IMG/VR virus record: IMGVR_UViG_3300043409_000379
Coordinates: 1-56,301 of that record
From: a virus
Lineage: Duplodnaviria > Caudoviricetes
Length of the DNA stretch: 56,301 nt
Reading direction: 5' to 3' (one strand)
Shown here in pieces: positions 2,529 to 28,600 of the stretch. Below the pieces are notes generated by a model. The model was not told the DNA's origin and made no database searches. It was given only the letters and a program-made list of their open reading frames with translations. Position numbers and translations under genes: made by a program. The stretch's first letter is position 1, and every line of letters starts with the position of its first letter.

Positions 2529-3773
2529 ATGATTACTCTAAGCATCACCGAAAGAGCCGCTGTCCGTGCCGCGATCCAGTCTCACCCCGATTGGAAATCA
2601 TATCGACAGGCGAATGGCATTGACGCTTCCGCCCTTGGAACAGCGGGTTGCATTCGCGCCGCCGCCGCTTTGAACATCGACATCCCCGCAACAATCGCAC
2701 ATTTGACAGGAAAGACCGCCGACATGACAGACGCCGCCCCTACCTTGGGAATTGATATCCCCTACACCCTCGACCTCACCGCCGACACCGCCGCGCCGAC
2801 ATCTGACAGCTTGCCACCCCTGACAGGCTTCGATCATGCGACAATTACCCAACTCGACAACGTAGCCGCCGCCATCGGTCACGGGCGCGTGTTCTCCTCG
2901 CTTCTAGATAGCGCGATCACCTACCGCGATGAATACCTAAAAGAACGTGACAGAAAGACCGCACCCGCTTTGACAGTCTCCGCCGGACAGAAAGCCGCAG
3001 GATTTATCCCGCCGACATGGTCAAAGCATTTTTTGACAATGGTAAGTCTCGACAAGATTGTCGCCCTGACAGGACCATCAGGAAACGGAAAGACGACAAG
3101 CGCAAAGGCACTACTTGAACAAACCGACTGGAACGTGATCGAAGTTGACTGCACCGCCGACACCACCGCCGCCGATTTGATAGGCCGGAAGACTTTGACC
3201 GCCGACAGCGGGACAACCACCGTCACCTACGAAAACGGACCAGTTGCACGCGCCTTCAATGCAGACAAAAAAACCGCTGTTCTCTTGAACGAGTGGGATG
3301 CAATCGACCCCCGCGCCGCAATGGCATTTCAATCCGCCTTTGAACCCGCTCAAAACGGATCGCGCCGTATCACACTGCCAGAAACAGGCAGACAGATCGA
3401 AAGCAAAAACACCGTGATTTTTGTTCTTACGATGAACACGCTAGGCAATGGCGCATCGCGTCAATTCCAAGGCCGCAACGCACTCGACGGCGCGAACCGT
3501 GACCGTGTGGAAATCATCACCACCGCCTATGAGCATGACGCCGAACGCTTGACCGCTCACGGTTACACGAAAGAAACCGCCGATTATCTGGCAGAGTGGG
3601 CAAACGAGATCCGCGCGAAGATCGACGGTCAGAACTTGCGCTGTTTTGTTTCCCTTCGCCGCTTAATCACCGCCGCCGATTTAATCGACCGCGCCGGATT
3701 ATCGCGGAGCCGCGCCACCAAACTTGCATTCTTCGACCGCCTTGAAGCGTCCGAACTTGCCGCGATTTCTTGA
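2529..3773 (+). CDS. MoxR/CbbQ/CobS-like AAA+ ATPase
   Basis: Walker A GPSGNGKTT, Walker B-like VLLNEWD, sensor TMNTLGNG...GRNALDGANRDR and VSLRRL. Confidence 0.85.
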   Translation: MITLSITERAAVRAAIQSHPDWKSYRQANGIDASALGTAGCIRAAAALNIDIPATIAHLTGKTADMTDAAPTLGIDIPYTLDLTADTAAPTSDSLPPLTGFDHATITQLDNVAAAIGHGRVFSSLLDSAITYRDEYLKERDRKTAPALTVSAGQKAAGFIPPTWSKHFLTMVSLDKIVALTGPSGNGKTTSAKALLEQTDWNVIEVDCTADTTAADLIGRKTLTADSGTTTVTYENGPVARAFNADKKTAVLLNEWDAIDPRAAMAFQSAFEPAQNGSRRITLPETGRQIESKNTVIFVLTMNTLGNGASRQFQGRNALDGANRDRVEIITTAYEHDAERLTAHGYTKETADYLAEWANEIRAKIDGQNLRCFVSLRRLITAADLIDRAGLSRSRATKLAFFDRLEASELAAIS

Positions 3774-3826: not shown

Positions 3827-4753
3827 ATGAAACTTGTATCACCAATCAAAAAACTATCAGACGGTAGAGCAATCGTTGAAATTGACTACAGCCTTGCCGC
3901 CGCTTTCAACGATAAACCAACCGAAGAATTCCGGTCAAGCAAACGTGGACAGCACTACGAAAACCACCGCATCGCCGCCGCGACCGCAACAATCCCCGCC
4001 GCAACCCGCAACCGCGCCGAGCAGTTGAGCCGTGGACTTGCCGACGATTTCCAAACCTACCGCCGTGACTGGACCACGTTTCAGGATAGCGGCAGACTTG
4101 ATAGCCGCGCCTTCACCCGCGCCCTTGAAGCCGGAATGAACGGGCGCGATCCGCAAGAAACCCGCCCTTTCAAACGCTTGACCACCGTTGCAAAAAACGA
4201 TCCGCCGACCATTGCCATTGTTGCCGATTACGCTTGGAGCCTTCGGAGCGACGACGACACTTACGAAGCGCGAGTTGGAACGCTTGCTTGCTCTATCCTT
4301 TGGGCATGCGAGACCGCCGACCTTCCTTGCACCTTCGCCGCTGTTCGCGGCGATTGGAAAGGCGCAATTCATGGCACCCACTCAGACCGTAAAAGCCTGA
4401 TAGCCGTACTCGCACAACCTTCCCGCCCTTTGACCGCCGCCGCATATGCCGCCGCCGTTGGACGAGATGGACAGGACGCCTTTATATATGCCGCTTGTTA
4501 TGCCGCAACCTTGCCAAGCGCACTAAGCGGAAAGAACGGTTCGCCCGATGGTATATCCATTCTGGGATCGACAAGCGGAGCCGGAGGCATTGCATGGGCG
4601 CGTGAGATTGTTAGCGCGTCCTTCATCATTGCGATTGGCAACTTCGAACACAAAGAACGTGAAGACGCCGACATCCTACTTCCCGCAAACGCCAAGCCCG
4701 AAGATGCTATCGCGCAAATCCGCGCCGCCCTTCAAATCCGAAAGGCGGCTTGA
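3827..4753 (+). CDS. Putative vWA-like (CobT-like) partner of the AAA+ ATPase
   Basis: Immediately downstream of the MoxR-type ATPase. It has SGRLDSRAF followed by a beta-strand TIAIVADYAWS resembling a degenerate MIDAS. Confidence 0.55.
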   Translation: MKLVSPIKKLSDGRAIVEIDYSLAAAFNDKPTEEFRSSKRGQHYENHRIAAATATIPAATRNRAEQLSRGLADDFQTYRRDWTTFQDSGRLDSRAFTRALEAGMNGRDPQETRPFKRLTTVAKNDPPTIAIVADYAWSLRSDDDTYEARVGTLACSILWACETADLPCTFAAVRGDWKGAIHGTHSDRKSLIAVLAQPSRPLTAAAYAAAVGRDGQDAFIYAACYAATLPSALSGKNGSPDGISILGSTSGAGGIAWAREIVSASFIIAIGNFEHKEREDADILLPANAKPEDAIAQIRAALQIRKAA

Positions 4754-6339: not shown

Positions 6340-6650
6340 CTAAGTGATTGATAATATTGAGTATAGCCCTATATCCCCCGTTTGGAGATCGTTTTTCCAA
6401 AAATAATTCTACAACCGGAGCCCTCTAAGACTAAGTGCTAAGTCATTGAATATATTGATATAACTGAAATAAAACTGTAAGTCATTGAATATATTGATAT
6501 AATCCATATAGGGGTATTTTAAAAATAAAATATGCGAAAAAAACACGATTTTGCCCAAAAGTGCTGATATCGACTATATCAATATATTCAATGACTTACA
6601 ATTATATCCCGACTATATCTCCCTTCCTTATAGAGAAACCCCTATATTTC
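6340..6650. promoter_or_regulatory. AT-rich region with 24-bp direct and inverted repeats and IHF-like sites (candidate origin or packaging control region)
   Basis: TAAGTCATTGAATATATTGATATA at 6439-6462 and 6478-6501, inverted copy at about 6575-6599, degenerate copy at 6341-6360. It lies at a divergent transcription switch. Confidence 0.7.
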
Positions 6651-6788: not shown

Positions 6789-7037
6789 GTGATGACTGAA
6801 GATAGAATTTTCGAAGATTGCGCCCGTCTTGAGGACGAACTCAAACTTTGCGTGTTGTCTTATCTGGAAAAGAGCAAGACGGACAACGGCGAGAAACTCA
6901 TTGTTCTCCAAGCGACTGTTCTCAGCTTTTACGTGAACCTGTTGACCAAGGCGGGGCATGACCCTGACGAAATCATGCAGATCACGAAGCAGGGCATCAT
7001 GGCGGTACGCGAAGACCGCAAGAGGAGCGCGGCATGA
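6789..7037 (+). CDS. Hypothetical protein
   Basis: GGAGA RBS; first gene of the rightward small-gene operon. Confidence 0.75.
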   Translation: MMTEDRIFEDCARLEDELKLCVLSYLEKSKTDNGEKLIVLQATVLSFYVNLLTKAGHDPDEIMQITKQGIMAVREDRKRSAA

Positions 7038-7252
7038 CCCCGAACGTACAAACTTTATCGGATGTTGCTGTGTTCGCCATGAACGAGACTGACCTTTTGG
7101 AAGAGGAATGGCTTTCGGAGTGGGATGTTTGGCTTGGATATGAAGGTTACTCTGTTAACCTGTTCTTCAATGGCGAAGGCTCACCCCAAGCAACAATGTA
7201 TTCGTCAACAGAAGACGGCATTAACTTTGATTCCGCTATCGAACTTTTTTAA
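7034..7252 (+). CDS. Hypothetical protein
   Basis: ATGA overlap with the previous gene; AGGAG RBS. Confidence 0.7.
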   Translation: MTPNVQTLSDVAVFAMNETDLLEEEWLSEWDVWLGYEGYSVNLFFNGEGSPQATMYSSTEDGINFDSAIELF

Positions 7253-7266
7253 GACAGGAGAGCATC

Positions 7267-7506
7267 ATGACTGAACGTGGCGATGAGAAATCAGCATTGG
7301 TCGGCGACAACGACCACTTTGTAAAAGTGCGGGTGACAGGGTATGTCACCTACCGCTTCCAGAACAACATGACGAGGGCAGAGTTTGAGAGTTGGGCGGA
7401 GGTCAACCTTGACCGTTTCGACCAGATGACAAATCGGTCCCTTGATCGCATCAACTACCACATTGTAGAACTCGAAACCCGCCAACTAAAGCGCAAGCAA
7501 GCATAG
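7267..7506 (+). CDS. Hypothetical protein
   Basis: AGGAG RBS, co-directional with neighbours. Confidence 0.7.
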   Translation: MTERGDEKSALVGDNDHFVKVRVTGYVTYRFQNNMTRAEFESWAEVNLDRFDQMTNRSLDRINYHIVELETRQLKRKQA

Positions 7507-7520
7507 AAAGGCCCCGTGTT

Positions 7521-7847
7521 ATGGCAAAGTTTGCAACAGGCACCATTAACTACGAGTTTGACGACCTCCCGATCTACATCTTGAAGGCGGACGGCACGAA
7601 GCAATACCGACTTGTGGAAGGGGAAGCCGAGATCAACTACTCGGCCTCCACCTACCAAGACGAGGCTTCTGGTGAAGCGTGGGAAATTGACTACACGATT
7701 GACGGTCTGTCCTGTCTTTCCATGACCGATTACGCATTTGATCAGGTGGCGGACATAGTAGACCACCACCTCCCCCTTGTACTCGAAGCACTTGATCTCA
7801 AAACATTTGACATTGAGTGCCAGATTTTGGAAGAAATAGAAGATTGA
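7521..7847 (+). CDS. Acidic hypothetical protein
   Basis: GAAAGG RBS; strongly D/E-rich, 108 aa. Confidence 0.7.
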   Translation: MAKFATGTINYEFDDLPIYILKADGTKQYRLVEGEAEINYSASTYQDEASGEAWEIDYTIDGLSCLSMTDYAFDQVADIVDHHLPLVLEALDLKTFDIECQILEEIED

Positions 7848-7868
7848 CACTGTGAAAGGACTATCAAA

Positions 7869-8234
7869 ATGCACATCTTGAAAAAGATTACTCAAGACGA
7901 ATATGACGGCTCTGATACCCCAACGAAAGAGTTTCTCAAGGAAGAGGTCGCCTTACAGGAAGACATTATCAATGAGTTTAGCAGGATTGCCAGTTTGATT
8001 GTCGAAGCGCATCCCGAGAACCACCCTCATCAGACAATGGCAAGCATTCTGTCAGCGGGGACGCAGTTTATTATCAAGTCCGCGTACTTTGCAACCATTC
8101 CAAAAGAAGTCGTCCATCAGATGTGTGATCAGATCATCGAAGACACATACAAAAGCACGAAGGAGCGCGACGACCTCATTGAAAAGGTCAAAGCGCACAT
8201 AGAGGGGATCGCAAAGAAGGCGACGAAGCATTGA
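7869..8234 (+). CDS. Hypothetical protein
   Basis: AAAGGA RBS, 121 aa. Confidence 0.7.
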   Translation: MHILKKITQDEYDGSDTPTKEFLKEEVALQEDIINEFSRIASLIVEAHPENHPHQTMASILSAGTQFIIKSAYFATIPKEVVHQMCDQIIEDTYKSTKERDDLIEKVKAHIEGIAKKATKH

Positions 8235-8376
8235 AACGCTTCTGGCAGAGGACGGAGGTCAAAGGTCGGAGATCAATCAACCTCCCTCCTGTGACCATCC
8301 ACCTATCCCTTCCCACCACCTCCCTTTACCTTTGCATCAACGACAAAGTAATCCTGTCATTAAAGAAAGAAATCCG

Positions 8377-8844
8377 ATGACACTCCAGTTTAACACCAAG
8401 GAAGAATTAACCACCCACTACACCAGTCTTCGGATGAAGTTCCGAAACCCTCCCGAAACAGTCCGACCAATTCTAAGGGTCGTGGACGGCCCTCCATCCA
8501 TTTCTGGTAGGGTAGGTGCCGACAGCCCCGTCTTGGATGACAGCGCACCCTCCCTGCTCGACCTAGAGATACGCCGCCGCCACGAACTCCTCGACGGTTG
8601 CATTCTCTCCCGCCCTCGTAAACTTGTCGTGCTTCCTGTCTTGGAAGAGATCGGCATGGGATGGAAGCATTTGTTCAACGGAACGAGGAAGCCGGATATT
8701 GTCAGAAAGCGTTGGTTGGTATTCCGCGCACTTCGGGATGACGGCATGAGTTTACCGCAGATTGGTCGGGCTTGCGGTAACATGGACCATTCGACCGTTT
8801 TCCACGGCCTTAAGGGCTTAGAAAAAAGCCTATCCTGCTCTTAA
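8377..8844 (+). CDS. Protein with DnaA C-terminal (domain IV)-like HTH
   Basis: C-terminal MSLPQIGRACGNMDHSTVFHG matches the DnaA signature SLPxIGxxFGxRDHTTVxH. No AAA domain. Start placed at ATG 8377. Confidence 0.75.
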   Translation: MTLQFNTKEELTTHYTSLRMKFRNPPETVRPILRVVDGPPSISGRVGADSPVLDDSAPSLLDLEIRRRHELLDGCILSRPRKLVVLPVLEEIGMGWKHLFNGTRKPDIVRKRWLVFRALRDDGMSLPQIGRACGNMDHSTVFHGLKGLEKSLSCS

Positions 8845-8869
8845 GTCCACATTGTAACTGAAAAGGAAA

Positions 8870-9298
8870 TTGAAGATGATTGTAGAAAATATTCTAACGG
8901 AAAGACAAGAGACGCATGGCACCTATCAGGAAGTTGCCAGTATCGCGCAGTTGTTCCGCGAGATCATGCGTGGAACGGACGGTTGGCAAAGGATGAACGA
9001 CGCACAGCGTGAGGCCTTGGACAGCATGGCGTCGAAGTTTGGTCGCCTTGGTTCTGGCAACCCGCACTTCCGCGATCATTGGGACGATCTGGCAGGGTAC
9101 GCTGCGCTTGCATCCATGCACTGCGATAGCAACAACTGTACGGTGCAACAGGACATCGCCAAGGTTGTCGAGCAGATCAAGGTCGGAGGAGAGCCGACAG
9201 GTGTTGACGAAGACGGAGAGAGGTTTCCGGAAGTCGCAACGCTTCCGAAAACTGGCAAGAAGGGTTTCTTTAGTGCCAAGAAAGATGAAGGAGAATAG
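8870..9298 (+). CDS. Conserved phage protein (DUF6378-like)
   Basis: [10 protein letters not shown]...[18 protein letters not shown] motif. Confidence 0.7.
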
Positions 9299-9300
9299 AC

Positions 9301-9756
9301 ATGGGACTCAAGAAACTTGAAGAGCGAAACAATCAAATCTTTGCACAAAGAAAGCATGGACTTACCTACCGAGAACTAGCCAAAGAATTTAATCTAAGCG
9401 GCTTCCGTGTTTCAAGTATATGCGCCCAAGAACAACGCAGGAAAGACAAAAGAGTAGTCCACGATGAGGTAATTGCATCAAGTAAACCGGAACTTGCCGA
9501 TCTCAACCCCGTGTTATTTAGGAAGGTTGACGAGTTGGAGTGGTCGGTTCGCACAGGAAATTGTCTTGCGAATGACAACATCATCTATATTTGCGACTTA
9601 GTTCTTCAATCAGCACCGGACCTTCTACGTATCCCAAACCTTGGTCTCAAGGGTATAGATGAGATCAAGGAAGTTCTGGCAACGATGGGGCTTCATCTCA
9701 CCTTGAAGAAGATGACAAAATGGGGACACAGGGAATTGATTACTTATTATGCTTAA
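9301..9756 (+). CDS. HTH domain fused to RNA polymerase alpha C-terminal domain
   Basis: N-terminal [32 protein letters not shown] (HTH). C-terminal [30 protein letters not shown]...[26 protein letters not shown] (alpha-CTD). Confidence 0.85.
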
Positions 9757-9792
9757 CGACAGAAAACACATCAACAAGAAAGGGCTAAGGCA

Positions 9793-10320
9793 ATGTCAAG
9801 TTTTATAACTGTATATAACATTATCATCCATCTTCCACCGAGCCATTCCAATGACAAATCCCCCAAGGTCCGAGTAGCGGACAGCTTTGGCAATGAGCAG
9901 ATGGCGAAGGATGCCTTGTTTGATCTGGTGGTGTCTGATTTTGATGCGGCACAAAAAGAAGGCACGGACTTGATTAACAAGCGTTCGTTCTCCCTCCAAA
10001 AGATGCTTGTTCATACGCCACAAGACATTTCTAAGGAGTTACTTAAAGAGCAGAAATACTCCTTCAATCCGGCATTGTTTGAAAAGGTTGAGGAACTAGA
10101 ATTGTCCGTTCGTTCTGTGAACTGCCTCAAAGAGGGTAATATTGCCCTTATTGGAGACCTCATCCAATGGTCGGGAGCAGAACTGCTACGACTTCCATAC
10201 TTTGGTCGCAAAAGTCTTAATGAGATCAATGAAGTTCTAGCAACGATGGGGCTTCATCTTGGCATGGAAGTGAAGGGGTGGGAACGTCAGCCTTCCCCAT
10301 ATCGGAGAGATCATGATTAG
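9793..10320 (+). CDS. Unknown N-terminal domain fused to RNA polymerase alpha C-terminal domain
   Basis: [35 protein letters not shown]...[33 protein letters not shown], very similar to the alphaproteobacterial RpoA CTD. Confidence 0.88.
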
Positions 10321-10411
10321 TCCTGTCGGACTTGCAATCATGCAATCGTTGGCAGCGGTGGTATTTATCACCGCTGCTGTCATCCTCATCCACTCCATCT
10401 GGAGAAAGTAA
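10313..10411 (+). CDS. 32-aa single-TM peptide
   Basis: Below the ORF-track cutoff. [32 protein letters not shown] with GGAGA RBS; fills the gap exactly. Confidence 0.6.
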
Positions 10412-10873
10412 ATGTCTGTCAACAAGGAAACCGGTGACCCAAGAAGTTTAATTTACTCTTTGGAAAATCTTGCGATTGATCCGTTTCAAAGGTTGGTGGA
10501 CAAAGATGCGACTGCTTTTGTCAGGGATAAAATTCTCTCTAACTTAGCACCCCGTCAGAGGCGTATCCTCATACTGAGATTTGGATTATCTGACGGGGGA
10601 CAGGAGTTATCTGTCAGTGAATTAACGGAGATGTACGGAGTTACTCGCGAGAGAATTAGACAGATAATAAACTTTTCAATTCTTAAATTAGTTATGGTTA
10701 TCGTAGGGAACAAAGATTATAGGGCCGCGTTAAATTCTTTTTATAATACAAACATAGAAGAACGAGACATTAAGTTATCCTATAAAAAATCAAACACGTC
10801 ACATGCCTTGTGGCAACATACTGGATTAAATATTGAAAAAGAATACAAGCGTGACAATCATTGGAGAAAGTAA
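10412..10873 (+). CDS. Stand-alone sigma70 region 4 domain protein
   Basis: ILSNLAPRQRRILILRFGL...LSVSELTEMYGVTRERIRQI (RpoD region 4.2). No region 2. Confidence 0.85.
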   Translation: MSVNKETGDPRSLIYSLENLAIDPFQRLVDKDATAFVRDKILSNLAPRQRRILILRFGLSDGGQELSVSELTEMYGVTRERIRQIINFSILKLVMVIVGNKDYRAALNSFYNTNIEERDIKLSYKKSNTSHALWQHTGLNIEKEYKRDNHWRK

Positions 10874-11068
10874 ATGCCCGATATCACGATGTGCAACGGC
10901 GAGACATGCACCCTGTCAGAAACCTGTTTCCGCGCACCACAGAGCGGGACAGAGCCGAACGGTCGCCACCAGTCGTGGTTCATGGAGGAGCCGTACTGGC
11001 GGGATGGCAGAGGGCCGACCGTCTGTGATTACTATTGGAAGATTGACCCGTCGAAGGAGAAAGAGTGA
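10874..11068 (+). CDS. Small Cys-containing phage protein
   Basis: MPDITMCNGETCTLSETCFR...CDYYW; bounded by junction repeats. Confidence 0.75.
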   Translation: MPDITMCNGETCTLSETCFRAPQSGTEPNGRHQSWFMEEPYWRDGRGPTVCDYYWKIDPSKEKE

Positions 11069-11160
11069 TGATGGACGTATTACACTATATTGGGATAGTC
11101 GTTATTTGCATCTCGCCTCTACTACTTGGGATCGTCATAACTCGTAAGGAGAAAGAGTGA
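11068..11160 (+). CDS. 30-aa single-TM peptide
   Basis: Below the ORF-track cutoff. MMDVLHYIGIVVICISPLLLGIVITRKEKE lies exactly between two junction repeats. Confidence 0.65.
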   Translation: MMDVLHYIGIVVICISPLLLGIVITRKEKE

Positions 11161-11375
11161 TGTTTGGAATGCCATCAATCAAACGTGAAGGACAAACCAT
11201 GCTGAATATGTGCATGGAACAATGCGAAGGCGTCTACTTAATGGATGAGATTAAGCGGTTGCGGGGAGTTTTTTTGACAGTATTGGAAGCCTGTGAAGAT
11301 GTAAATTCTCCCGACAGAAAAGTACGTGTAGAAATTACAAAGAGATGCCGTGAAGCACTGAAGGAGAAAGAGTGA
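11157..11375 (+). CDS. Hypothetical cassette protein
   Basis: Contains EIKRLR and ends EALKEKE within a junction repeat. Confidence 0.7.
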   Translation: MMFGMPSIKREGQTMLNMCMEQCEGVYLMDEIKRLRGVFLTVLEACEDVNSPDRKVRVEITKRCREALKEKE

Positions 11376-11692
11376 TGACTGATATCGTTGAACGATTGCG
11401 GGAACATAATGAACCTCCGTTTGATTACATTGCCCACGAAGCCGCCTCCGAGATTGAGCAACTGAGGAAAGACAAACAACTAGGGTTTGAGCTGATGGAT
11501 GTTTTTGTAAAAGAGATCAATCAATTGAAGCAAGCCGCCAACGAGAGCGAACGGTTGCGGAACGCGCTGCGGCAGATAACTGAACTCAGCCCATTCAAAT
11601 CTAATACTGGTAACGCGTCTCTCCAGTACATCACTCAAAGGTTGGTTGAAATGACAGCGTTGGCCCATGAAGCACTGAAGGAGAAAGAGTGA
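11372..11692 (+). CDS. Coiled-coil phage protein (MTDIVERLR...EAASEIEQLR type)
   Basis: Bounded by identical 27-bp repeats; ends EALKEKE. Confidence 0.75.
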   Translation: MMTDIVERLREHNEPPFDYIAHEAASEIEQLRKDKQLGFELMDVFVKEINQLKQAANESERLRNALRQITELSPFKSNTGNASLQYITQRLVEMTALAHEALKEKE

Positions 11693-12021
11693 TGGATGCT
11701 ACTGAAAAATTATCTCAAATGATGATCCGATGTGGATTGGCAACGGGACACGGTGACACTATTGACGATTTGATTTTTGAATTGGAAAAACAATTCAAAA
11801 ATACATCAAACGCTTTTAGCGATGCACAAAAAGAGATTGAGCGGTTACGGGTATGGAATAATCTGGTGGAGAACAAGTGGCTGTGGATAGAAAGTGCATT
11901 GCAATTCATTGCGATGGCAAAGCCGCTTGATGGACAGACGTGGGAAAAACATTCAAAACAAGTAAAAGACTACGCTATCAAGGCACTTGAATTTAAGGAG
12001 TTCAACGATGACGTACGATAA
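11689..12021 (+). CDS. Hypothetical cassette protein
   Basis: Starts in a junction repeat; contains EIERLR. Confidence 0.7.
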   Translation: MMDATEKLSQMMIRCGLATGHGDTIDDLIFELEKQFKNTSNAFSDAQKEIERLRVWNNLVENKWLWIESALQFIAMAKPLDGQTWEKHSKQVKDYAIKALEFKEFNDDVR

Positions 12022-12226
12022 CAGCGGGATCATTAGCAAGAATGACCGCAAGGAAACTGATAAGCATCCTGACATATCTGGTAGCGCAACAGTAGACGGC
12101 GTGGAGTATTGGCTGTCAGGCTGGAAGAAGGAGAAGAACGGTAGGGGTTTCTATACCCTGTCGTTCAAACCAAAAGATGCGAGAACACCTGAACGTAAAG
12201 AACTTGATGACGAGATACCATTTTAA
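12008..12226 (+). CDS. Small putative ssDNA-binding protein (DUF736-like) with DDEIPF tail
   Basis: KNDRKETDKHPDISG...VDGVEYWLSGWKK...YTLSFKPK...DDEIPF; AAGGAG RBS. Confidence 0.7.
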   Translation: MTYDNSGIISKNDRKETDKHPDISGSATVDGVEYWLSGWKKEKNGRGFYTLSFKPKDARTPERKELDDEIPF

Positions 12227-12242
12227 CAAAAGGATGCGCGAT

Positions 12243-12551
12243 ATGAACAACGAAGACAAGATTGAATTGGCTTTTCTAGTTTTTCACATGGACAACCCTC
12301 ATGTGTATGAGGAGGTTAAGAAGATTGCATTGGACTTAAAGAGGTCTGGCAGAGATTTCTACGGCATTGGAGCGATCTTTGAGATTGTCCGGTACCACAG
12401 AGCCATGACAACGAATGACCCTATTTTTAAATTGTGTAACAATCACAGAGCCTTATACAGCAGACTTCTGATGAAACAGGAACCAGAATTGGCTGGTTTC
12501 TTTAAGATCAGACAACGCGGCGTGACAGAACAACAACACGGAGAAGAGTGA
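12243..12551 (+). CDS. Conserved hypothetical phage protein
   Basis: FHMDNPHVY...IFEIVRY...FKLCNNHRALYSRLLM...PELAGFF pattern. Confidence 0.7.
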   Translation: MNNEDKIELAFLVFHMDNPHVYEEVKKIALDLKRSGRDFYGIGAIFEIVRYHRAMTTNDPIFKLCNNHRALYSRLLMKQEPELAGFFKIRQRGVTEQQHGEE

Positions 12552-13219
12552 TGTCGAAAGAGAAACGAGAACTTGCGCGGCTTGAGATATGTATGGCCTT
12601 TCAAAGGTCGGCGGACAACTTTTCCCGCGAGATTGAGGACCAAATTAGAACCATAAAATCTATCTCCGAGAAGAACACGATCCGGATGGAGGCACGGCGG
12701 AGAAAGAAGAAAGAAGCCGAAGAGGAAGCACTGCGTCTGGCACAGGAAGAAGCGGATATTGCTGCCAGAAAAACAAAAAGGACTAAATCTAACAAGACTT
12801 TTTTAGTTCCCGCAATTCCTTTGCCCATTGTGGTTAAGAAGAAGGTTTACAACAAGGCACTTGTGGCGGAGTTTGAACCTTTTACCATTAAAAAAGGCCG
12901 CGATATAATTGAGGTCTCTATGAAACTGTCAACGATTGGTGAGTTGGAAGAGTTGCCAGATGTTATCCGCGTTTATGCGGGATATCTTGAGACTTTGATC
13001 AAGGAAGAGACGTTTAACTTGAACCCTTTGCCCGGATCAATGGAAACATTTGCGGCGGAGGTTGCCAGAAAAACCTTGGATCAAATACAAATTTGCAAGA
13101 GCCTTCTGCATATCTATCAAGGGCATCCAGACAATGCGATCAAGAGAGCGAAAGAACTTTTGAATTTTAAAAAAAGAACTGTAAAGAATGTGTCCATGGT
13201 GGTTGACAATCACTATTGA
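12548..13219 (+). CDS. Hypothetical protein (coiled-coil, basic)
   Basis: 223 aa; begins in a degenerate junction GGAGAAGAGTGATG. Confidence 0.7.
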   Translation: MMSKEKRELARLEICMAFQRSADNFSREIEDQIRTIKSISEKNTIRMEARRRKKKEAEEEALRLAQEEADIAARKTKRTKSNKTFLVPAIPLPIVVKKKVYNKALVAEFEPFTIKKGRDIIEVSMKLSTIGELEELPDVIRVYAGYLETLIKEETFNLNPLPGSMETFAAEVARKTLDQIQICKSLLHIYQGHPDNAIKRAKELLNFKKRTVKNVSMVVDNHY

Positions 13220-13263
13220 TCATGCGATAAGAGGTTATTGCTTAACGAAGAAAGGTAAGTGAA

Positions 13264-13599
13264 ATGAGAGCCATCCTAATTGATCCGAACGAACAGTCCT
13301 TCACTGAAGTCGAGTACAACGGTGACTGGAAAACCATCGCGCCTCTTCTCGGGTGCGAGTTGTTCACCGTCGTCTATACCGACTTTGGCGACATCTATGT
13401 TGATGACGAAGGTCTGTACAATACCGAGAACGCTTTCTTTGTTCTCGATAGCGTACCACAACCTCTTTGTGGTCGTGGCTTGGTGTTTGGACCTGTTGAT
13501 GACGAGGGTGACACAACCGCTGCAACGATCTCCATCGGAGACCTTGAGGAAAAATTATTCTTTATGTCGAGGTCAAAGGTTTACAAAATGTTTGCATGA
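13264..13599 (+). CDS. DUF3846-like protein
   Basis: MRAILIDP...DIYVDDEGL...QPLCGRGLVFG. A TTGACA lies at 13203 upstream. Confidence 0.7.
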   Translation: MRAILIDPNEQSFTEVEYNGDWKTIAPLLGCELFTVVYTDFGDIYVDDEGLYNTENAFFVLDSVPQPLCGRGLVFGPVDDEGDTTAATISIGDLEEKLFFMSRSKVYKMFA

Positions 13600-13627
13600 T
13601 ACTATCATGCGGTTTCTCCTAAACTTG

Positions 13628-13665
13628 ACCCTGCCAGTTTCCTCCCAGACTGGCAGGGTTTTTTT
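13628..13665 (+). terminator. Intrinsic terminator at the convergent junction
   Basis: ACCCTGCCAGT...ACTGGCAGGGT followed by a T run. Confidence 0.85.
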
Positions 13666-22683: not shown

Positions 22684-25600
22684 TCAGTCCTCAAGTTTTG
22701 TTGCACGGGCAGTTTCCGTCGCATACTTCTGGATTTTTAAGTAGTCTTCCCGAATGCTCTTATTCAAGTCTTGGATCTCGGCACGACGCTTTTCAGGAGT
22801 CATGCTCTGGTCTTTTGCTATCTGGGCGCGATACGCCTCGCGCTTGTGAATTGTATTTAACATGTAATTTATATTCTGCGCCCTCTGCTTGACGACATCC
22901 AGCGGGGTAATGTTAAACCCGAACAGTCTTGCGGCAGTAGCAAGGGTATCAGGCTTCGCCATCCCACGCTTGTCTGTTCCCGTCCCGTCCGAGAACAGGC
23001 TGTTGTAGATACGCGGAATCGCACCACCGCTGTTGTCCATGTTGTTCAGGTCAAAACTTAACATCGGAGGAAGGGCTTGGTTCCAAGCATACGAAAGACC
23101 AGAAAAGAACTGATTCATTCCAGTATCCAACGGGTTTACAACCTGCTTGTCAGTGAACGGGTCACGTCCTGTCGCCATGACAGCAATCGCTGTGATGAGT
23201 GGTCCACCGGGAACAAACTGTCCGCCGAGTTGCTTCAAACCCTTTACAGGCTCTCCGTACCACGCGGCTGTCACGACAGGATCGGTGAATGCCGCCCAAG
23301 GGAAGAAGTACCCAAGATCGACCATCTGGATTTTTCCGTTGGAGTCCTTCCAAGGAAGGATATACATCGACCCCTTGTCACGCATATAGTCTGCCGCAGT
23401 TTTACGAGCAGCCTCGTAATCCTCATCGTCCCAATCCAACTGTGCCATTGCAATCTGTGGGAGGGCATAGGACAGCATAATGTATGGAGCAAACCGAAGT
23501 GGATGCTCTCTTGCTGTCTGGATCAGCTTTGGCAGAACCTTGTAGTAGTATGTAATGAACGGAAGACCGAGGGGAGCGTTCCGAAGCCATCTGATATTCG
23601 GGTTCACCATCGTGTAATCAAACAGCGAGTCATGTGCAGCGTCCACAGACTCGGATACCGTCTTGCCGTTCTTCCGGCTCTCAATAAAGAGGGCCATCTT
23701 GAACAGAACTTCCATGTTCTGATAGAACTCGCCCGGCTTTGACAGAAGGTACTTCGCTGCAATACGGCCCGTAGCCATCGCTCCGAAGAAGTTGTTCTTG
23801 TCTCCGCGAGCCTGATACTGCTTCATAGTGTTGAACATTATTTTAAGTTCGGCAGCCGCCATCGTTCCACCTTGGATGCCGTACTCCTGTGCGTCCTTCC
23901 AATACTGATCTTTGCTCGACCATGATTTTGCTGCCGCTGACAATGCGCTTGGCAACTTGTGCAATGGAATTCCACCAAATACGTTCAATGCCACAATGTT
24001 CGAGATGACGTTACGAACCTGAGATGGGACGTTAAAAGTTACTTTTCCAAGTTTCCAAACCTTGTTTGCATTGACCAACAGACTTTGTTCGTCACCAAGA
24101 ATTTTACCAATCATCGACTGGTTCGTGTTCGGAACCATTGCAAAAGTACCAACAAGATCGTCGTAGATACCCTCTTGAACAACAGCACCGCGCAACACAC
24201 CGTATCGTGGCGTATCTGGCAAACGCTGATACCCGTCTGGAATCTTTGACTCTGGTCCATATCCCGGAATTTTATCCAGCAACTTCTGCATACTTGCAAT
24301 CTCCTTGCGGACGATTGCAGCGCGGGCGGGATCTGTCTGCTCTGCCAGAGGAAGAGTGACCGTCTTCATCAACTTGATCTCGCTTGCCATCCAGAACGGG
24401 GATACCATCTTCCCCCTCCAGTTGATCACACTGTCGTCGAGTACCCACTTGACGCCCGATGTGGTGCCAATCTCGGCAAAGTATTGGGCCAGAGCCATGT
24501 CTCTGGCAGGACGGGCGATTGCAACATACGCCAAGAACGCAGGGTTCTTGATTTCACCCAGCAGTTCGCGCTCCTCGACAGAAAGCTGATCATCACGGAG
24601 TTTCAAATACTCCTGCTTGCTCAGTCCCATGTTAGGGGTCTTCATTCCCCGTTCAGTCGCCTCATAGTACAAATAAAGACGCGGGACGTACTGATCGTAG
24701 TTTTTATCAAGCGATTCCTGCGTCATGAATCCGGCATCAACAAGCCGCTTACCTTGCTTATTGATCTCTTCCTTTGCACGGACAGCAGCCTTGCGGACTT
24801 CCGGATCGACAATCATCGACGGAGATGCGCCGCGTGTCGTCAGGAACTTGTAGACATTCCCGTTGTGACCGCTGTCAGCCTTTGATCCCTTTGCAATGTC
24901 GGCAGCAATCTTCTGTCCAAGTTCGTTTGCAGTTCCGGTCGTGCCAAGAAGCCTGTTGCGGAACGAACGAAGCAGTGGCGCGTTGTCGATGAAAGCCCAC
25001 GGATCGAAGAATTCCTTCACCGTGTCCGTGATATTGCTCCATCTGGTAGAGTTCACCTGCGCCCCCGCTGCATTCGGAGCGTTTGCAACTTTTGGTGGAA
25101 CCTTTACACGAGAGTACCTAATATCAGGGTTAGTTTCATCAAACGTACCTATGTTACCCGTGGCAGATTTAACCTGTGTTGGTTTGAATACAACAAACTC
25201 TTTTGTTCCTTCCGCATCTTTGCTATCAAGAATGACACCATCATACCCAGCATCAATCAACTGTTTACGGATGTTCTCAGCAATCTCTGTGTCACCGGCT
25301 TCAATGGCTTCTTTAATCGCAGTCTTTTCTGTTTGCGTTGCAAGGTATGGGTTCTTCATACTTAAGTGAAGAGGCATGACATTCGGTGCGTTGCCTCTCT
25401 TCATACTAGCGTACATGCTTGCAAGAGAGGTGTTATTAGTAAAATAAAACCCACGACCAAGCCACCCAACGTCTTTCTTGTTGGGCTGATAGTCTCTGAA
25501 CTCAGAAAAGACATCAGCTGTGCCATGGTACACGACGTTAGGAACATCCGGATGATTACCTTTTTGGAAGGCAGCAAGGTTCTCTGACCTTACACCCTCG

Positions 25601-28600
25601 TCAGCAATATATTCTTTTCTAAACCTAGCCCGAGAGAACTCAAAGTCCGATCTTCCAGCGTATGTTGGATTTTTGGCATACACCAACGGCCCAATCTGTA
25701 AAACTTCCTCTGCTGCAACAACAGGCTTCATATCACCACGGGTATAGAAGAACGAATGCCGTGTCGGGTCCATCCCCACCTGCACCCATGCGGGATTGAT
25801 ATGAACCTGTTTCGCCTTGGCGTATGCTTCCTTTGAAGTAATTGGTTTGAAACCACCCCTCATGGTTGCGTATGGTGCTTTACCTGCACCCTTAGCTGTG
25901 GCAAGGGCCGCACTTTCTGTTACGCTAAATGTGACATCAGTTGCCGCGCTTACGCTTTCATAGACAGTTGGTTTTTTGGTTTGAGTACCCGAACTTCCAT
26001 CATGGATAGCGTTAACCCAAGCATTTTTACCATCCTCTCTGGCATAAGCAGGGATATCCAATCGCAGTTTAACGGGATCGCCTTCTTTGTAGTACTGGTC
26101 TGCTAAACCATACTTGTCCTGTTTATTCTCATATAAGGCGTTTATCGCTTGTTCAGAGGTTGCTGGAACAGGGATATTTTTTATGTCATACAACTCGACA
26201 GGTTTTCTCTTACGAACCAACGCATCCCATTGATCCGGCGTAATCTCCCCATCCTTTAACTTAGCTACGTTCTCTTCCAAAACAGGATCACGTTTTAAGA
26301 TATCCTTATGGGGCATCCCTATTCGTGAGAAGTTCTTAGCACGGGAGAATTCTGTTGACCTTGCCGTTCCCGGCTTGAACTCATTGAAAACACTTTTAAT
26401 GGCAGTTGGGTCTTTCAATATAACAACAAGGCTGTCATTGGTTGCTATACCCGTTTTCCGGTTTGGTGGAATCCAAGCGTCATACCCCTGACTACGTAGA
26501 GTATCAAAAAATCTAGATTGCGCTTCCTTGTAGTTATCCTTCTTCGCTTCTGGCGGCAAGTTACCTCTATAGGGATTTTCTACCCTTAAGAATACAGGTA
26601 TGACACGACTTGCCGTATTTTTCAGTTGGGGACTAAAATCTTTTTTAGAGACTAGATCGTAGTACTCGGCAAGTGTGAGTTTTTTAACACCTTGGCTATC
26701 ATTATTTTCAGCATACTTAGATGCCTCTTCTGGATCAGTGGTAAACCAAGTACCATGGCGTCCAACCTTAAACGACTTGAAAATAAAATCCTTTGACGTT
26801 CCGGTGTAGAACACAAGCGGCTTGCCTGTATTAACATCCGTAATTGCGGCCCCTCTTGACCACGCATCATATTCCTCGTCCCTAGTACGATTGACAGGCT
26901 TATCGCGATAAACCCTTTCTTTTTTTGCAGGAACTATACTTTCGAACTCTGCTAAAAGATCATCAGGAAGATCCCAATCAATCACCCCCTCCGCCCTGTT
27001 TATGGTGTAAGGGTCGCGAGAATACTCCGGCCCAGAAGTCTTCTGACCAGTATTAAGACCACGCTGTGCAACACCTGCCGACACACCAGCAAACGCTTCT
27101 TCAACAGTTGTGAAGCCCTGACCACTTAGCATATTGCCAATGGCTTCTCTGACAGACTTTACAAAATTTACAAAACGTACAAAAGCCGACCCGAGCCCAC
27201 CAATCTGGACGTTGTTCTGTCTGGCCTGATCAAGAAGACCAAACACATATGCCTTGAGTTCGCGTTCCTTCTGGAACTGGCTCGTCTCTTCTGCAACAGC
27301 AGCGTCGATATCACGCGACATCAACGTATCATACAGTGATTCCTTGCCGTCCACCATCGGGTTGCGGGTGTTCTTCAACACACGCAGAAGATTTGGATTG
27401 ATCTCGTCAATCTTCGTCGCGCCCTTGAATGCAGCGTCGATAATCCGGCCCGTTGCACGATCAGAAGCAGCAAAGGCGTCCTCCAACGAATGCCAGATCT
27501 CATGCGATGTTGTTTCCAGCGGATTGTAGTCCGGGTTCAACGACAGTTCGATAAGCTGGCGGTACGCTGACCGGGTTCCTCCGACTTCCACGTCTGCCAG
27601 AAAATCACCGGGATTCTCCGGATCTGGGAATGTACCAAACAAGTTGGCAGCAAACTTGATCTTCTGCGCTCCTGTCACGCCGCTCAACAGGCGCATGACA
27701 GTTTCTGACATCTTGAACGCTTGAAGAACCTGATCGACAGATATTTTTCTGTCAGCAATAGCCCGCTTCAAAGCTACTGCCAGATTCCTGCCCTGATCGG
27801 TATCGTCACCTGCCAGCTTCTTGATGGCGTCGTCGATCCGCTGCATTGCAGCAGCTTTGTCTTCCGCCGTAATCGTCTTGACGGGCTCAACAACAGGGGT
27901 CGGAGGTTGTTGGGCAGCCGTCTTCGCTGCACGGGCCTTCGCCTTGGCCTTCTTGGACTTCCGTTTTCCACCAGCACGGGAATATTCTTTATCAATTTCA
28001 GAAATAAATATGTTTTCGAGGCTAGGTTCTCTGGGATTGAAAGGGATTTTCTTTGCCGTTGCCTCCGCCTTTGTTTTCAAAGCGGCAGCATATGTCGCTT
28101 GTGGATCAAGCGTCGGGTCGTTTATGATCTTATCATAGGCAAAGGTCATCGCTTCATTGTCGAGCGGCATCTTGTCAGTGAATACAAGACGGTTCAAATC
28201 ATCCGCAGCCGTTCGACGTGCAGTATCTTTCCGCTCACCACTCACCTTTTCGTCATTAACAATCGCCTTTTCTACCGCAACAACAGGGTCGTCCTCCCGT
28301 CCTTCTACCAGACGGCGGACAGCATCATCGTAGGCTTCATCGGAATAGTTCTGATATCCGGCATCTGCAATCGCGCCATCGACGGCACGTTCGATATCCC
28401 CTATTAGAGCCTCTTTTGTCTGACCTTTTCCTGCAAACGCTGCGAGTTTTTCTGGGTCGTACACACCGTTCGTAGGAAGATCGGCAGTTCTACCAGCAGA
28501 GATGTCTTGCGCCAACAGGGTACGGAATTTAGCAACGTCTTCTTTGGTGACAGCCCCGCCTTGTTGATCAACAGGTCCAAGCCATCCAGCATTCTTGGCC

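Follow-up and report, generated by a model that had tools for sequence, protein, structure and literature searches.

A complete viral record of the Caudoviricetes (IMG/VR IMGVR_UViG_3300043409_000379; 56,301 bp with direct terminal repeats, the full length being referred to here as the window) encodes three small + strand proteins built from promoter-recognition modules of bacterial RNA polymerase (RNAP). Two of them, aCTD1 and aCTD2, carry the C-terminal domain of the RNAP alpha subunit (alpha-CTD) behind different N-terminal parts, and the third, sig4, is a stand-alone sigma-70 region 4. We tentatively propose that aCTD1, aCTD2 and sig4 may be early host-takeover proteins that compete with the promoter-recognition modules of the host enzyme. 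Phage factors that redirect host RNAP are known; here they appear to be built from the polymerase's own modules.

Polymerase modules in small phage proteins

aCTD2 (9793-10320, + strand, 175 aa) consists of an N-domain (residues 1-75), a linker (76-90) and an alpha-CTD (92-150, bases 10066-10242), and aCTD1 (9301-9756, + strand, 151 aa) of a helix-turn-helix (HTH; about residues 3-50), a linker and an alpha-CTD (69-127, bases 9505-9681). Both match Pfam RNA_pol_A_CTD (PF03118; curated cut-off 23.8 bits), aCTD2 with 72.9 bits and aCTD1 with 59.5 bits (74.8 and 60.9 bits in a six-frame search). Residues 77-164 of aCTD2 align gap-free with residues 235-322 of E. coli alpha, and its model matches the E. 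coli alpha chain 4mex_A with Z 11.5 and an rmsd of 2.1 over 75 residues (1z3e_B: Z 9.6); the fold also matches Rad51 N-terminal, SAM and other helix-hairpin-helix (HhH) domains at Z 5-6. The alpha-CTD part of aCTD1 is modelled at pLDDT 45-65, and its Z of 6.0-6.6 to alpha-CTD folds comes from this low-confidence model. A preliminary description of this DNA had named two alpha-CTD fusions, a stand-alone sigma region 4 and a DnaA domain IV (in the neighbouring gene DnaA4), and all of them score above the Pfam curated cut-offs.

The same description held that both alpha-CTDs keep the equivalents of E. coli R265, N268, G296 and K298, which alignment to solved chains confirms. All six determinant positions are kept in aCTD2 (R107, N110, C111, G138, K140 and S141 for R265, N268, C269, G296, K298 and S299). 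In aCTD1, which is in register with aCTD2 (+23) through a shared alignment to chain 9zum_A, five of the six are kept (R84, N87, C88, G115 and K117 for R265, N268, C269, G296 and K298); G118 replaces S299 and A90 replaces K271. Acidic residues at positions 259 and 261 are retained in both proteins (E101 and E103 in aCTD2; E80 is present in aCTD1). Across phage and host alpha-CTD cores, the R265- and G296-equivalent positions are invariant (29/29). We take positions 265 and 261 of these domains to be the DNA-binding and the sigma-contact determinant, respectively.

The alpha-CTD modules are clearly host-derived, as judged from their sequence identities. Among 563 relatives of the aCTD2 core (one genome per species), the best 80 are all 73-78% identical to it and by title nearly all from Alphaproteobacteria, mostly Hyphomicrobiales. 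A sample of Alphaproteobacteria has a match in 193 of 201 genomes, a tally that includes one unpublished genome (G041), and the 150 matches listed are 59-76% identical. This class-wide search carried no taxon labels, and the host is assigned at the level of the class Alphaproteobacteria. In the alignment of 29 cores, aCTD2 is 75-77% identical to host sequences and 57% to aCTD1, while aCTD1 is 59-61% identical to the host and to members of its own family (L009, P0126, P0152) alike; in P0152, a protein with an aCTD1-type HTH, the alpha-CTD shares 90-93% identity with the host domain. No viral copy is thus closer to its viral counterparts than to the host domain, a pattern that fits repeated capture or conversion from rpoA, or star-like divergence from it.

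The N-terminus of aCTD1 appears to be sigma4-like, an HTH of the sigma4/Mor class. Residues 3-50 are modelled as a three-helix HTH at pLDDT 75-89. On Sigma70_r4 they reach 21.8 bits with Pfam and 23.5 bits in the six-frame search, below or at the edge of the cut-off of 24.1, and on Mor (PF08765) 15.7 bits, under the cut-off of 24.9. Alignment by hhalign places residues 21-46 on the 4.2 HTH of the sig4 family (26 columns, E 4.1e-5, probability 70%); BLASTP of the aCTD1 HTH against sig4 gave no alignment, the likeness being found by profile comparison only. PHROG 836 and 532, annotated as 'late transcriptional activator', are matched at E 3.2e-4 and 3.6e-3. Fold matches are tied at Z 5.7-7.8 among LuxR-type domains, many sigma region 4 chains, Mu C and Mor, the values for Mu C (Z 6.5) and Mor (Z 5.8) being level with those of many other HTH proteins. 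The recognition helix lacks the R-E-R-x-R-Q pattern, i.e., the -35-reading residues are not kept; therefore, it should read a sequence different from -35 hexamers.

The N-domain of aCTD2 is predicted to fold as strand-strand-helix-strand (pLDDT 65-82) and has no convincing structural or sequence relative in Pfam, in fold and feature searches or in a viral structure library. The best fold matches over residues 1-76 lie at Z 4.5-5.1 and include ClpS and an 8g9s chain, scores in the Atlas feature search stay at chance level (0.80 or less), and a two-copy homodimer prediction of residues 1-78 (score 0.05; mark 0.42) speaks neither for nor against a dimer. Conservation across the aCTD2 family is higher in the N-domain than in the alpha-CTD, and P0011-P0013 still have the N-domain at 46-49% overall identity. 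In P0011 and P0013 the alpha-CTD that accompanies it shows only 35-39% identity to the alphaproteobacterial type; the module could have been swapped to match another host.

sig4 (10412-10873, + strand, 153 aa) carries region 4 at residues 42-93 (bases 10535-10690), with extensions of 40 aa N-terminally and 60 aa C-terminally, neither of any known family. It scores 48.0 bits on Sigma70_r4 (PF04545; cut-off 24.1). Its best solved matches are region 4 of group-1 SigA/RpoD chains, and the motif TRERIRQI, previously read as the -35 recognition helix, is present and aligns with region 4.2 of group-1 SigA chains. By this comparison, sig4 is nearest to region 4 of primary sigma factors. Its full-length relatives in the protein collection form six clusters only (P0267-P0272, 83-95% identity), one of them seen on 19 contigs.

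All these products had been described as isolated DNA-binding ends that lack the alpha N-terminal domain (alpha-NTD), sigma region 2 and the AAA+ part of DnaA, and the four products carry no such Pfam domain. At E <=1, Pfam finds no alpha-NTD (PF01000, PF01193) in aCTD1 or aCTD2 (151 and 175 aa), no AAA+ domain III (PF00308, Bac_DnaA) in DnaA4, whose 155 aa are too short for one, and no other assembly or catalytic domain in DnaA4, aCTD1, aCTD2 or sig4. Because the N-terminal dimerisation and assembly domain is missing, aCTD1 and aCTD2 are not alpha subunits, just carriers of an alpha-CTD. A six-frame search of the whole 56,301-bp record at E <=1 gave no match to Sigma70_r2 (PF04542), with controls positive in 11 of 14 genomes, so that sig4 is not a sigma factor, though it may act like region 4. 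The earlier statement that the phage has no RNAP of its own stands insofar as none is recognisable and region 2 is absent; the six-frame search of the whole record for single-subunit RNAP (PF00940) was likewise negative, a weak result as it had no positive control, and multisubunit RNAP was not searched separately. Since neither sigma region 2 nor an RNAP was found, the phage must use the host RNAP. By Pfam and PHROG, aCTD1, aCTD2 and sig4 are the only recognisable transcription proteins of the genome.

Fusions elsewhere join the two modules directly. An IMG/VR pattern scan with the aCTD1 family returned 25 loci with frames of 98-297 aa, none a full rpoA by frame length, and Pfam was run on five of these 25 proteins and on five from protein searches. 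L022, L027 (= L028) and L029 (= L030) each encode a single protein with both Sigma70_r4 (39-58 bits) and RNA_pol_A_CTD (66-82 bits), all above the cut-offs. The L029 protein adds an XRE-type HTH, the L027 fusion lies in a contig with an integrase (a temperate phage), and the L030 fusion adjoins a helicase/methyltransferase gene. By these profile matches, true Sigma70_r4 and alpha-CTD fusions recur in five unrelated viral contigs; this recurrence and the predicted sigma4-like HTH at the N-terminus of aCTD1 are new. Within the holoenzyme, alpha-CTD and sigma region 4 adjoin on promoter DNA. The strongest argument that the separate genes of the window act on the same process is that sigma region 4 and alpha-CTD have been joined repeatedly and independently.

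Other combinations were also found. P0007 joins an aCTD1-type HTH, an aCTD2 N-domain and an alpha-CTD, a combination suggesting that HTH and N-domain cooperate; P0132 has an HTH and three alpha-CTDs, and P0010 and P0125 have two alpha-CTDs each. A search of a representative library with aCTD1 matched 5501 proteins at E <=0.001, one of which has 12 alpha-CTD stretches in 1031 aa. The metagenomic proteins P0121-P0266 (e.g., P0121, P0122, P0125, P0128, P0129 and P0132) contain 2-12 tandem alpha-CTD repeats of the alphaproteobacterial type, some fused to T5orf172, TPR-like or HTH regions, and look like an unexplored class.

The module genes are under purifying selection. Relaxed selection had been raised earlier as a concern, and dN/dS lies at 0.22-0.62, below 1 for all genes. 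The pairwise Nei-Gojobori values, which rest on small counts (3-20 synonymous changes in close pairs), are 0.22-0.62 for DnaA4, 0.35-0.36 for aCTD1, 0.35-0.62 for aCTD2 and 0.29 for sig4, with 0-0.24 for most neighbouring genes. Every comparison gives dN/dS <1 but that of the fast-evolving 15-residue linker of aCTD2, with 1.2-3.0 on 8-11 changes.

Four RNA-library runs, each from a different study of riverine or lake-water metatranscriptomes, contain contigs at 90-99% identity that cover parts of DnaA4, the DUF6378 gene that follows it, aCTD2 and the last gene of the block, including an L003-type DUF6378-aCTD2 junction. These contigs attest presence in RNA libraries, not transcription. Cover is absent on sig4 and limited to 41 nt of rpoA-like contigs on aCTD1, holes that carry no conclusion. 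The aCTD1 stretch in question (9659-9699, 41 nt) has four differences to long, abundant contigs (<=2600 nt) in all four libraries, which continue as rpoA-like sequence; likeness at the nucleotide level to the rpoA of a co-occurring bacterium might point to the host.

A variable slot in the presumed early region

PHROG profiles recognise terminase, portal, major head, tail and ejection proteins, DNA polymerase A, primase and helicases in the record. Because its DNA polymerase is 55% identical to that of phage 023Pt_psg01 and 49-52% to those of the Pelagibacter phages HTVC023P and HTVC027P, the phage is a distant relative of HTVC023P-type podophages. About 20 small + strand genes, opposite in orientation to nearly all others, form a block at 6789-13599 that is closed by a strong terminator-like hairpin (13627-13660); this block is presumably the early region. 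Within it, the genes from DnaA4 to sig4 abut or overlap, leaving no room for intergenic promoters. Searches against 50,697 phage records gave no blastn match to window positions 8300-10900, and tblastn of aCTD1, aCTD2 and sig4 found none in HTVC023P-type isolates, its matches being only host contamination, unannotated gut contigs, Bacillus phage Goe8 and cyanophage rpoD. An Rfam search of the window gave no match.

Upstream of the early + strand genes, in the divergent intergenic region between terS and the block, a 25-bp element is present in three copies (6439-6598; two direct at 6439 and 6478, one inverted at 6574-6598), with a degenerate copy at 6341. Three matches compare with 0.00 expected, and the element is conserved in L003, L005 and L007/L009. 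Each copy terminates in a TGnTATAA-like extended -10 motif, and together the elements might serve as early promoters or operators. Outside 6341-6598 the window showed no repeated candidate operator, and the gene map offered too few intergenic regions for a search for promoter motifs.

Relatives were anchored on two flanking genes, giving 19 IMG/VR contigs with DUF6378 and 80 with the border gene g10874, and alpha-CTD, sigma4 and DnaA4 were sought in their stop-to-stop frames with local profiles. Nine contigs, counting the window, share the gene order DnaA4 - DUF6378 - slot - g10874, and an alpha-CTD gene occupies the slot in 9/9. It is of the aCTD2 type in the window, L116, L117, L119 and L006 and of the aCTD1 type in the window, L118, L120, L128 and L130; only the window has both forms (1/9), and only the window and L118 have sig4 (2/9). 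Two further contigs (L121, L122) stop directly after DUF6378 and were left out of this judgement. The alpha-CTD module is present in eight of the 80 g10874 contigs, all already among the module-bearing ones. Read from these arrangements, the alpha-CTD genes are interchangeable cassettes, never missing in this sub-lineage, and sig4 is a rarer extra.

DnaA4 (8377-8844, + strand, 155 aa) carries a C-terminal HTH, DnaA domain IV, that matches Bac_DnaA_C (PF08299) at residues 88-146 with 34.8 bits (curated cut-off 31.5); the allele of L006 reaches 70.8 bits. An alternative TTG start lies at 8332, and the homologues P0344 and P0345 begin at the 8377 ATG. The alignment to the E. coli DnaA domain IV chain 1j1v_A sets D-H-S-T-V-F-H opposite D-H-T-T-V-L-H. 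DnaA4 occurs as three alleles (97%, 40% and 27% identity), and its distant phage-contig relatives carry the DnaA_C domain at the N-terminus instead. Compared with the DnaA initiator, DnaA4 shares the domain IV HTH, above the cut-off and with the D-H-[ST]-T-V-x-H signature, but has no AAA+ domain or domains I/II, and its N-terminal half is lineage-specific.

In a further 15 contigs, which carry neither alpha-CTD nor sigma4, a DnaA_C-type ORF immediately precedes g10874; of seven such ORFs run against Pfam, five are above the cut-off and two lie at 28-29 bits. Because DnaA4 is paired with g10874 in these contigs, the two form an older backbone that is not part of the RNAP-directed set. DnaA4 is a separate gene whose product probably binds DnaA-box-like DNA for replication or early control; DnaA-box-like 9-mers (one mismatch) are not enriched in the phage (13 vs 11.7 expected). 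The adjacency of a DnaA-domain-IV protein and g10874 in many otherwise different phage contigs (15 loci among L151-L205) is an observation in its own right. The preliminary description had joined the four genes into one kit, and this part is not sustained: both alpha-CTDs occur together only in the window, sig4 in 2/9 contigs, and DnaA4 belongs to the backbone. What does co-occur is an alpha-CTD gene with the module (9/9); the four genes are not inherited together.

The DUF6378 gene (8870-9298, + strand, 142 aa), absent from that description, is a conserved neighbour between DnaA4 and aCTD1 (Pfam 32.4 bits, cut-off 27.1; PHROG 17775, E 2.6e-19). g10874 (10874-11068, + strand) encodes a 64-aa Cys-rich protein (PHROG 20586, E 7.6e-6), forms the conserved right border of the variable slot and adjoins a DUF6378-like frame in eight contigs. 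Between aCTD2 and sig4, a 32-aa hydrophobic ORF (10313-10411, + strand) overlaps the aCTD2 stop codon and recurs in L003 at 6521-6619; it possibly encodes a small membrane peptide.

Proposed competition with the host enzyme and its alternatives

We suggest that aCTD1, aCTD2 and sig4 are accessory proteins made from captured host RNAP modules and translated off one tightly packed early operon, and that these modules would act as free competitors of the RNAP-borne alpha-CTD and sigma region 4. Because the 265-determinant is kept, the alpha-CTD modules would occupy A/T-rich DNA of the UP-element type and/or partners that contact alpha-CTD. In sig4 the region-4.2 recognition helix is kept, so that this protein would take up -35 hexamers or the beta-flap site; extra affinity or specificity may come from the HTH or N-domain joined to the alpha-CTDs. 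Host transcription that depends on UP elements, activators or -35 contacts would fall as a result. Extended -10 promoters do not require region 4 or alpha-CTD; phage promoters of this kind, like the repeats at 6439-6598, would need neither contact and be spared. Takeover genes typically occupy hypervariable slots such as the one in the early block that holds these genes. Competitive mimicry fits their closeness to the host, the kept DNA contacts, this hypervariable early slot, their dispensability and the phage habit of attacking exactly these contacts.

Several points weigh against this proposal. Nine of the 20 DUF6378 contigs (60-77% identity) carry no DnaA4, alpha-CTD, sigma4 or g10874 in the flanks available, and since these sister contigs do without alpha-CTD, its function is dispensable. 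The K298 equivalent is lost in aCTD1-type relatives (L009-L011, P0123), and the alpha-CTD part compared with L005 gives a dN/dS of 0.89, on eight changes only. The aCTD1 HTH, with its -35-reading residues missing, looks less like a general -35 competitor than like a site-specific factor. Alignment coordinates suggest that the positions of the basic patch behind the recognition helix of E. coli sigma70 are mostly hydrophobic in sig4. Titration of many host promoters requires high protein levels. For the 25-bp repeats, the assignment as extended -10 promoters is no more than a pattern match, and binding to DNA or partners, competition with RNAP and the direction of the effect are inferred.

As the main alternative, though we regard it as somewhat doubtful, the proteins could be activators or adaptors in trans: the HTH or sig4 would bind sites at middle or late phage promoters, and alpha-CTD would sit on adjacent DNA, contact region 4 of the incoming holoenzyme through the 261-determinant, or another alpha-CTD, and recruit RNAP untethered. 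A phage without its own sigma factor or RNAP must time its genes, and no other transcription proteins are recognisable in the genome. The weak likeness of aCTD1 to Mor (15.7 bits), to PHROG late activators (E 3.2e-4) and to the Mu C/Mor folds points the same way, as do its recognition helix, whose departure from sigma 4.2 implies a site of its own, and the acidic residues retained at 259 and 261; the L027 fusion in a temperate phage with an integrase is found in the very setting of sigma4-like late activators (RinA). However, aCTD1 stays under the cut-offs for Mor and Sigma70_r4, no DNA-binding partner domain is recognisable in aCTD2, and a repeated candidate operator is lacking beyond 6341-6598. 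Moreover, the genes are accessory, interchangeable and absent from sister contigs, which is unusual for an essential late activator.

It is unlikely that alpha-CTD serves here as a portable (HhH)2 minor-groove binder with no link to RNAP, in a DNA-organising, replication or anti-defence role together with DnaA4. Arrays of 2-12 repeats with unrelated partners (T5orf172, TPR-like, XRE HTH) are common among the 5501 matches, Rad51 N-terminal, SAM and further HhH domains have the same fold (Z 5-6), and the alpha-CTD genes of this lineage always lie beside DnaA4 and DUF6378. Such a binder would not be expected to be 75-93% identical to host alpha-CTD or to be fused repeatedly to sigma region 4, and the 15 contigs with DnaA4 but no alpha-CTD show no interdependence; the frequency of DnaA-box-like 9-mers (13 vs 11.7) likewise speaks against it.

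That the genes are functionless, decaying or neutral host fragments from illegitimate recombination, as their patchy distribution and a dN/dS above that of most neighbours (0.22-0.62 vs 0-0.24) might suggest, is very improbable, as the frames are intact and fused in frame with conserved partner domains, dN/dS is <1 everywhere but in the aCTD2 linker, the aCTD2 N-domain persists in P0011-P0013 (46-49% overall identity), the same architectures recur in unrelated viral contigs, and RNA-library contigs span DnaA4, DUF6378 and aCTD2.

Taking competitive mimicry further, one may speculate, with no great confidence, that alpha-CTD and sigma region 4 were captured time and again by phages and other mobile elements, which deploy them off the enzyme, singly, fused or in arrays. 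These would read UP- and -35-type DNA without RNAP and either blind the host RNAP to its own promoters or supply alpha-CTD in trans, an undescribed form of takeover by domain mimicry. They may also cooperate with a virion-borne ADP-ribosyltransferase (ART) of the phage, if that enzyme targets host alpha-CTD like T4 Alt.

Other genes of the record and known systems

The ART domain belongs to a 2526-aa protein of the structural module (22684-30264, - strand), in which ART-PolyVal (residues 1575-1708, 129 bits) is the sole domain found; the protein resembles an injected 'polyvalent' protein. The last gene of the early block (13264-13599, + strand, 111 aa; DUF3846, 40 bits) lies just before the hairpin at 13627-13660 and has the top contig depth in three of the four RNA libraries (X1-X3; depths 20.1, 5.6, 12.6 and 3.4). 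Inside the packaging region, a CobS-like AAA-type ATPase (2529-3773, + strand; PHROG 249 'porphyrin biosynthesis', E 6.4e-40) is encoded with a 308-aa partner without family (3827-4753, + strand).

In research on bacterial transcription, alpha-CTD and sigma region 4 have been regarded as functional only when attached to RNAP. Free host-like copies would, if true, be a new route of host takeover, and the window adds copies that are maintained by selection in a phage, exchanged as cassettes among relatives and fused together in unrelated viruses. Contacts with UP elements, activators and -35 DNA could then be probed in vivo with a ready natural tool, and tests are easy to set up, since the proteins are small and soluble-looking and the R265 and E261 equivalents offer clear mutants. 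The sigma4 and alpha-CTD fusions and the proteins with up to 12 repeats suggest an unexplored class of DNA- or RNAP-directed proteins.

As far as our searches reach, such proteins have been seen by annotation pipelines but, within the literature searched, not explained. Full-text searches found no published functional study of a phage-encoded alpha-CTD; supplementary tables, such as the gene tables of papers on HTVC023P-type phages, may list more cases. The published alpha-CTD-type annotation in Erythrobacter phage vB_EliS-L02 (L213, 26543-27064) has no Pfam support, looks wrong and was rejected as a precedent. A stand-alone alpha-CTD is present in a cultured phage, Bacillus phage Goe8, in Goe8_c00050 (210 aa; PF03118, 78.1 bits at residues 147-203), and entries of 111-204 aa in BFVD, a viral structure library derived from UniProt, carry the same automatic alpha-CTD name. 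Like aCTD1 and aCTD2, these are small phage proteins with a true alpha-CTD and no alpha-NTD; unlike them, they have other hosts and partner regions and are known from annotation only. Compared with host RpoA, the phage copies share the fold, the sequence family (PF03118) and the DNA-contact positions, but they lack the alpha-NTD, are fused to an HTH or a small N-domain, and have the host C-terminal tail replaced.

A survey of jumbo phages (PMC7824862) describes, in the parts available, single-HTH 'minimal sigma factors', gp33, AsiA and injected polyvalent proteins with ART domains; alpha-CTD proteins are not mentioned in those parts. RinA-family late activators are reported to be sigma4-like. 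The minimal sigma factors (PMC7824862, section 3.4.3), T4 gp33, RinA and Mu Mor/C are stand-alone HTH proteins of the region-4 type in phages without their own RNAP; sig4 resembles them in this, and the aCTD1 HTH has fold matches to sigma region 4 chains, Mu C and Mor at Z 5.8-7.0. Unlike them, sig4 appears to be a recent copy of a primary-sigma region 4 with TRERIRQI, and aCTD1 adds an alpha-CTD, an architecture not met in the portions of that literature available.

T4 Alt and ModA ADP-ribosylate R265 of alpha, and Alt is an injected ART. R265, the target of Alt, corresponds to the residue kept by the phage's own alpha-CTD copies, in a genome that also encodes the virion ART-PolyVal domain. 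gp67 of S. aureus phage G1 is reported to act on alpha-CTD and UP-element use, and T4 AsiA acts on sigma region 4, as described in PMC7824862. We saw no homology of aCTD1, aCTD2 or sig4 to Alt/ModA, gp67 or AsiA. What these systems would have in common with the phage described here is the presumed target, the UP/activator and -35 branch of host promoter recognition early in infection. In contrast, Alt/ModA, gp67 and AsiA bind or modify RNAP, whereas this phage encodes copies of RNAP modules, which suggests that they compete by mimicry.

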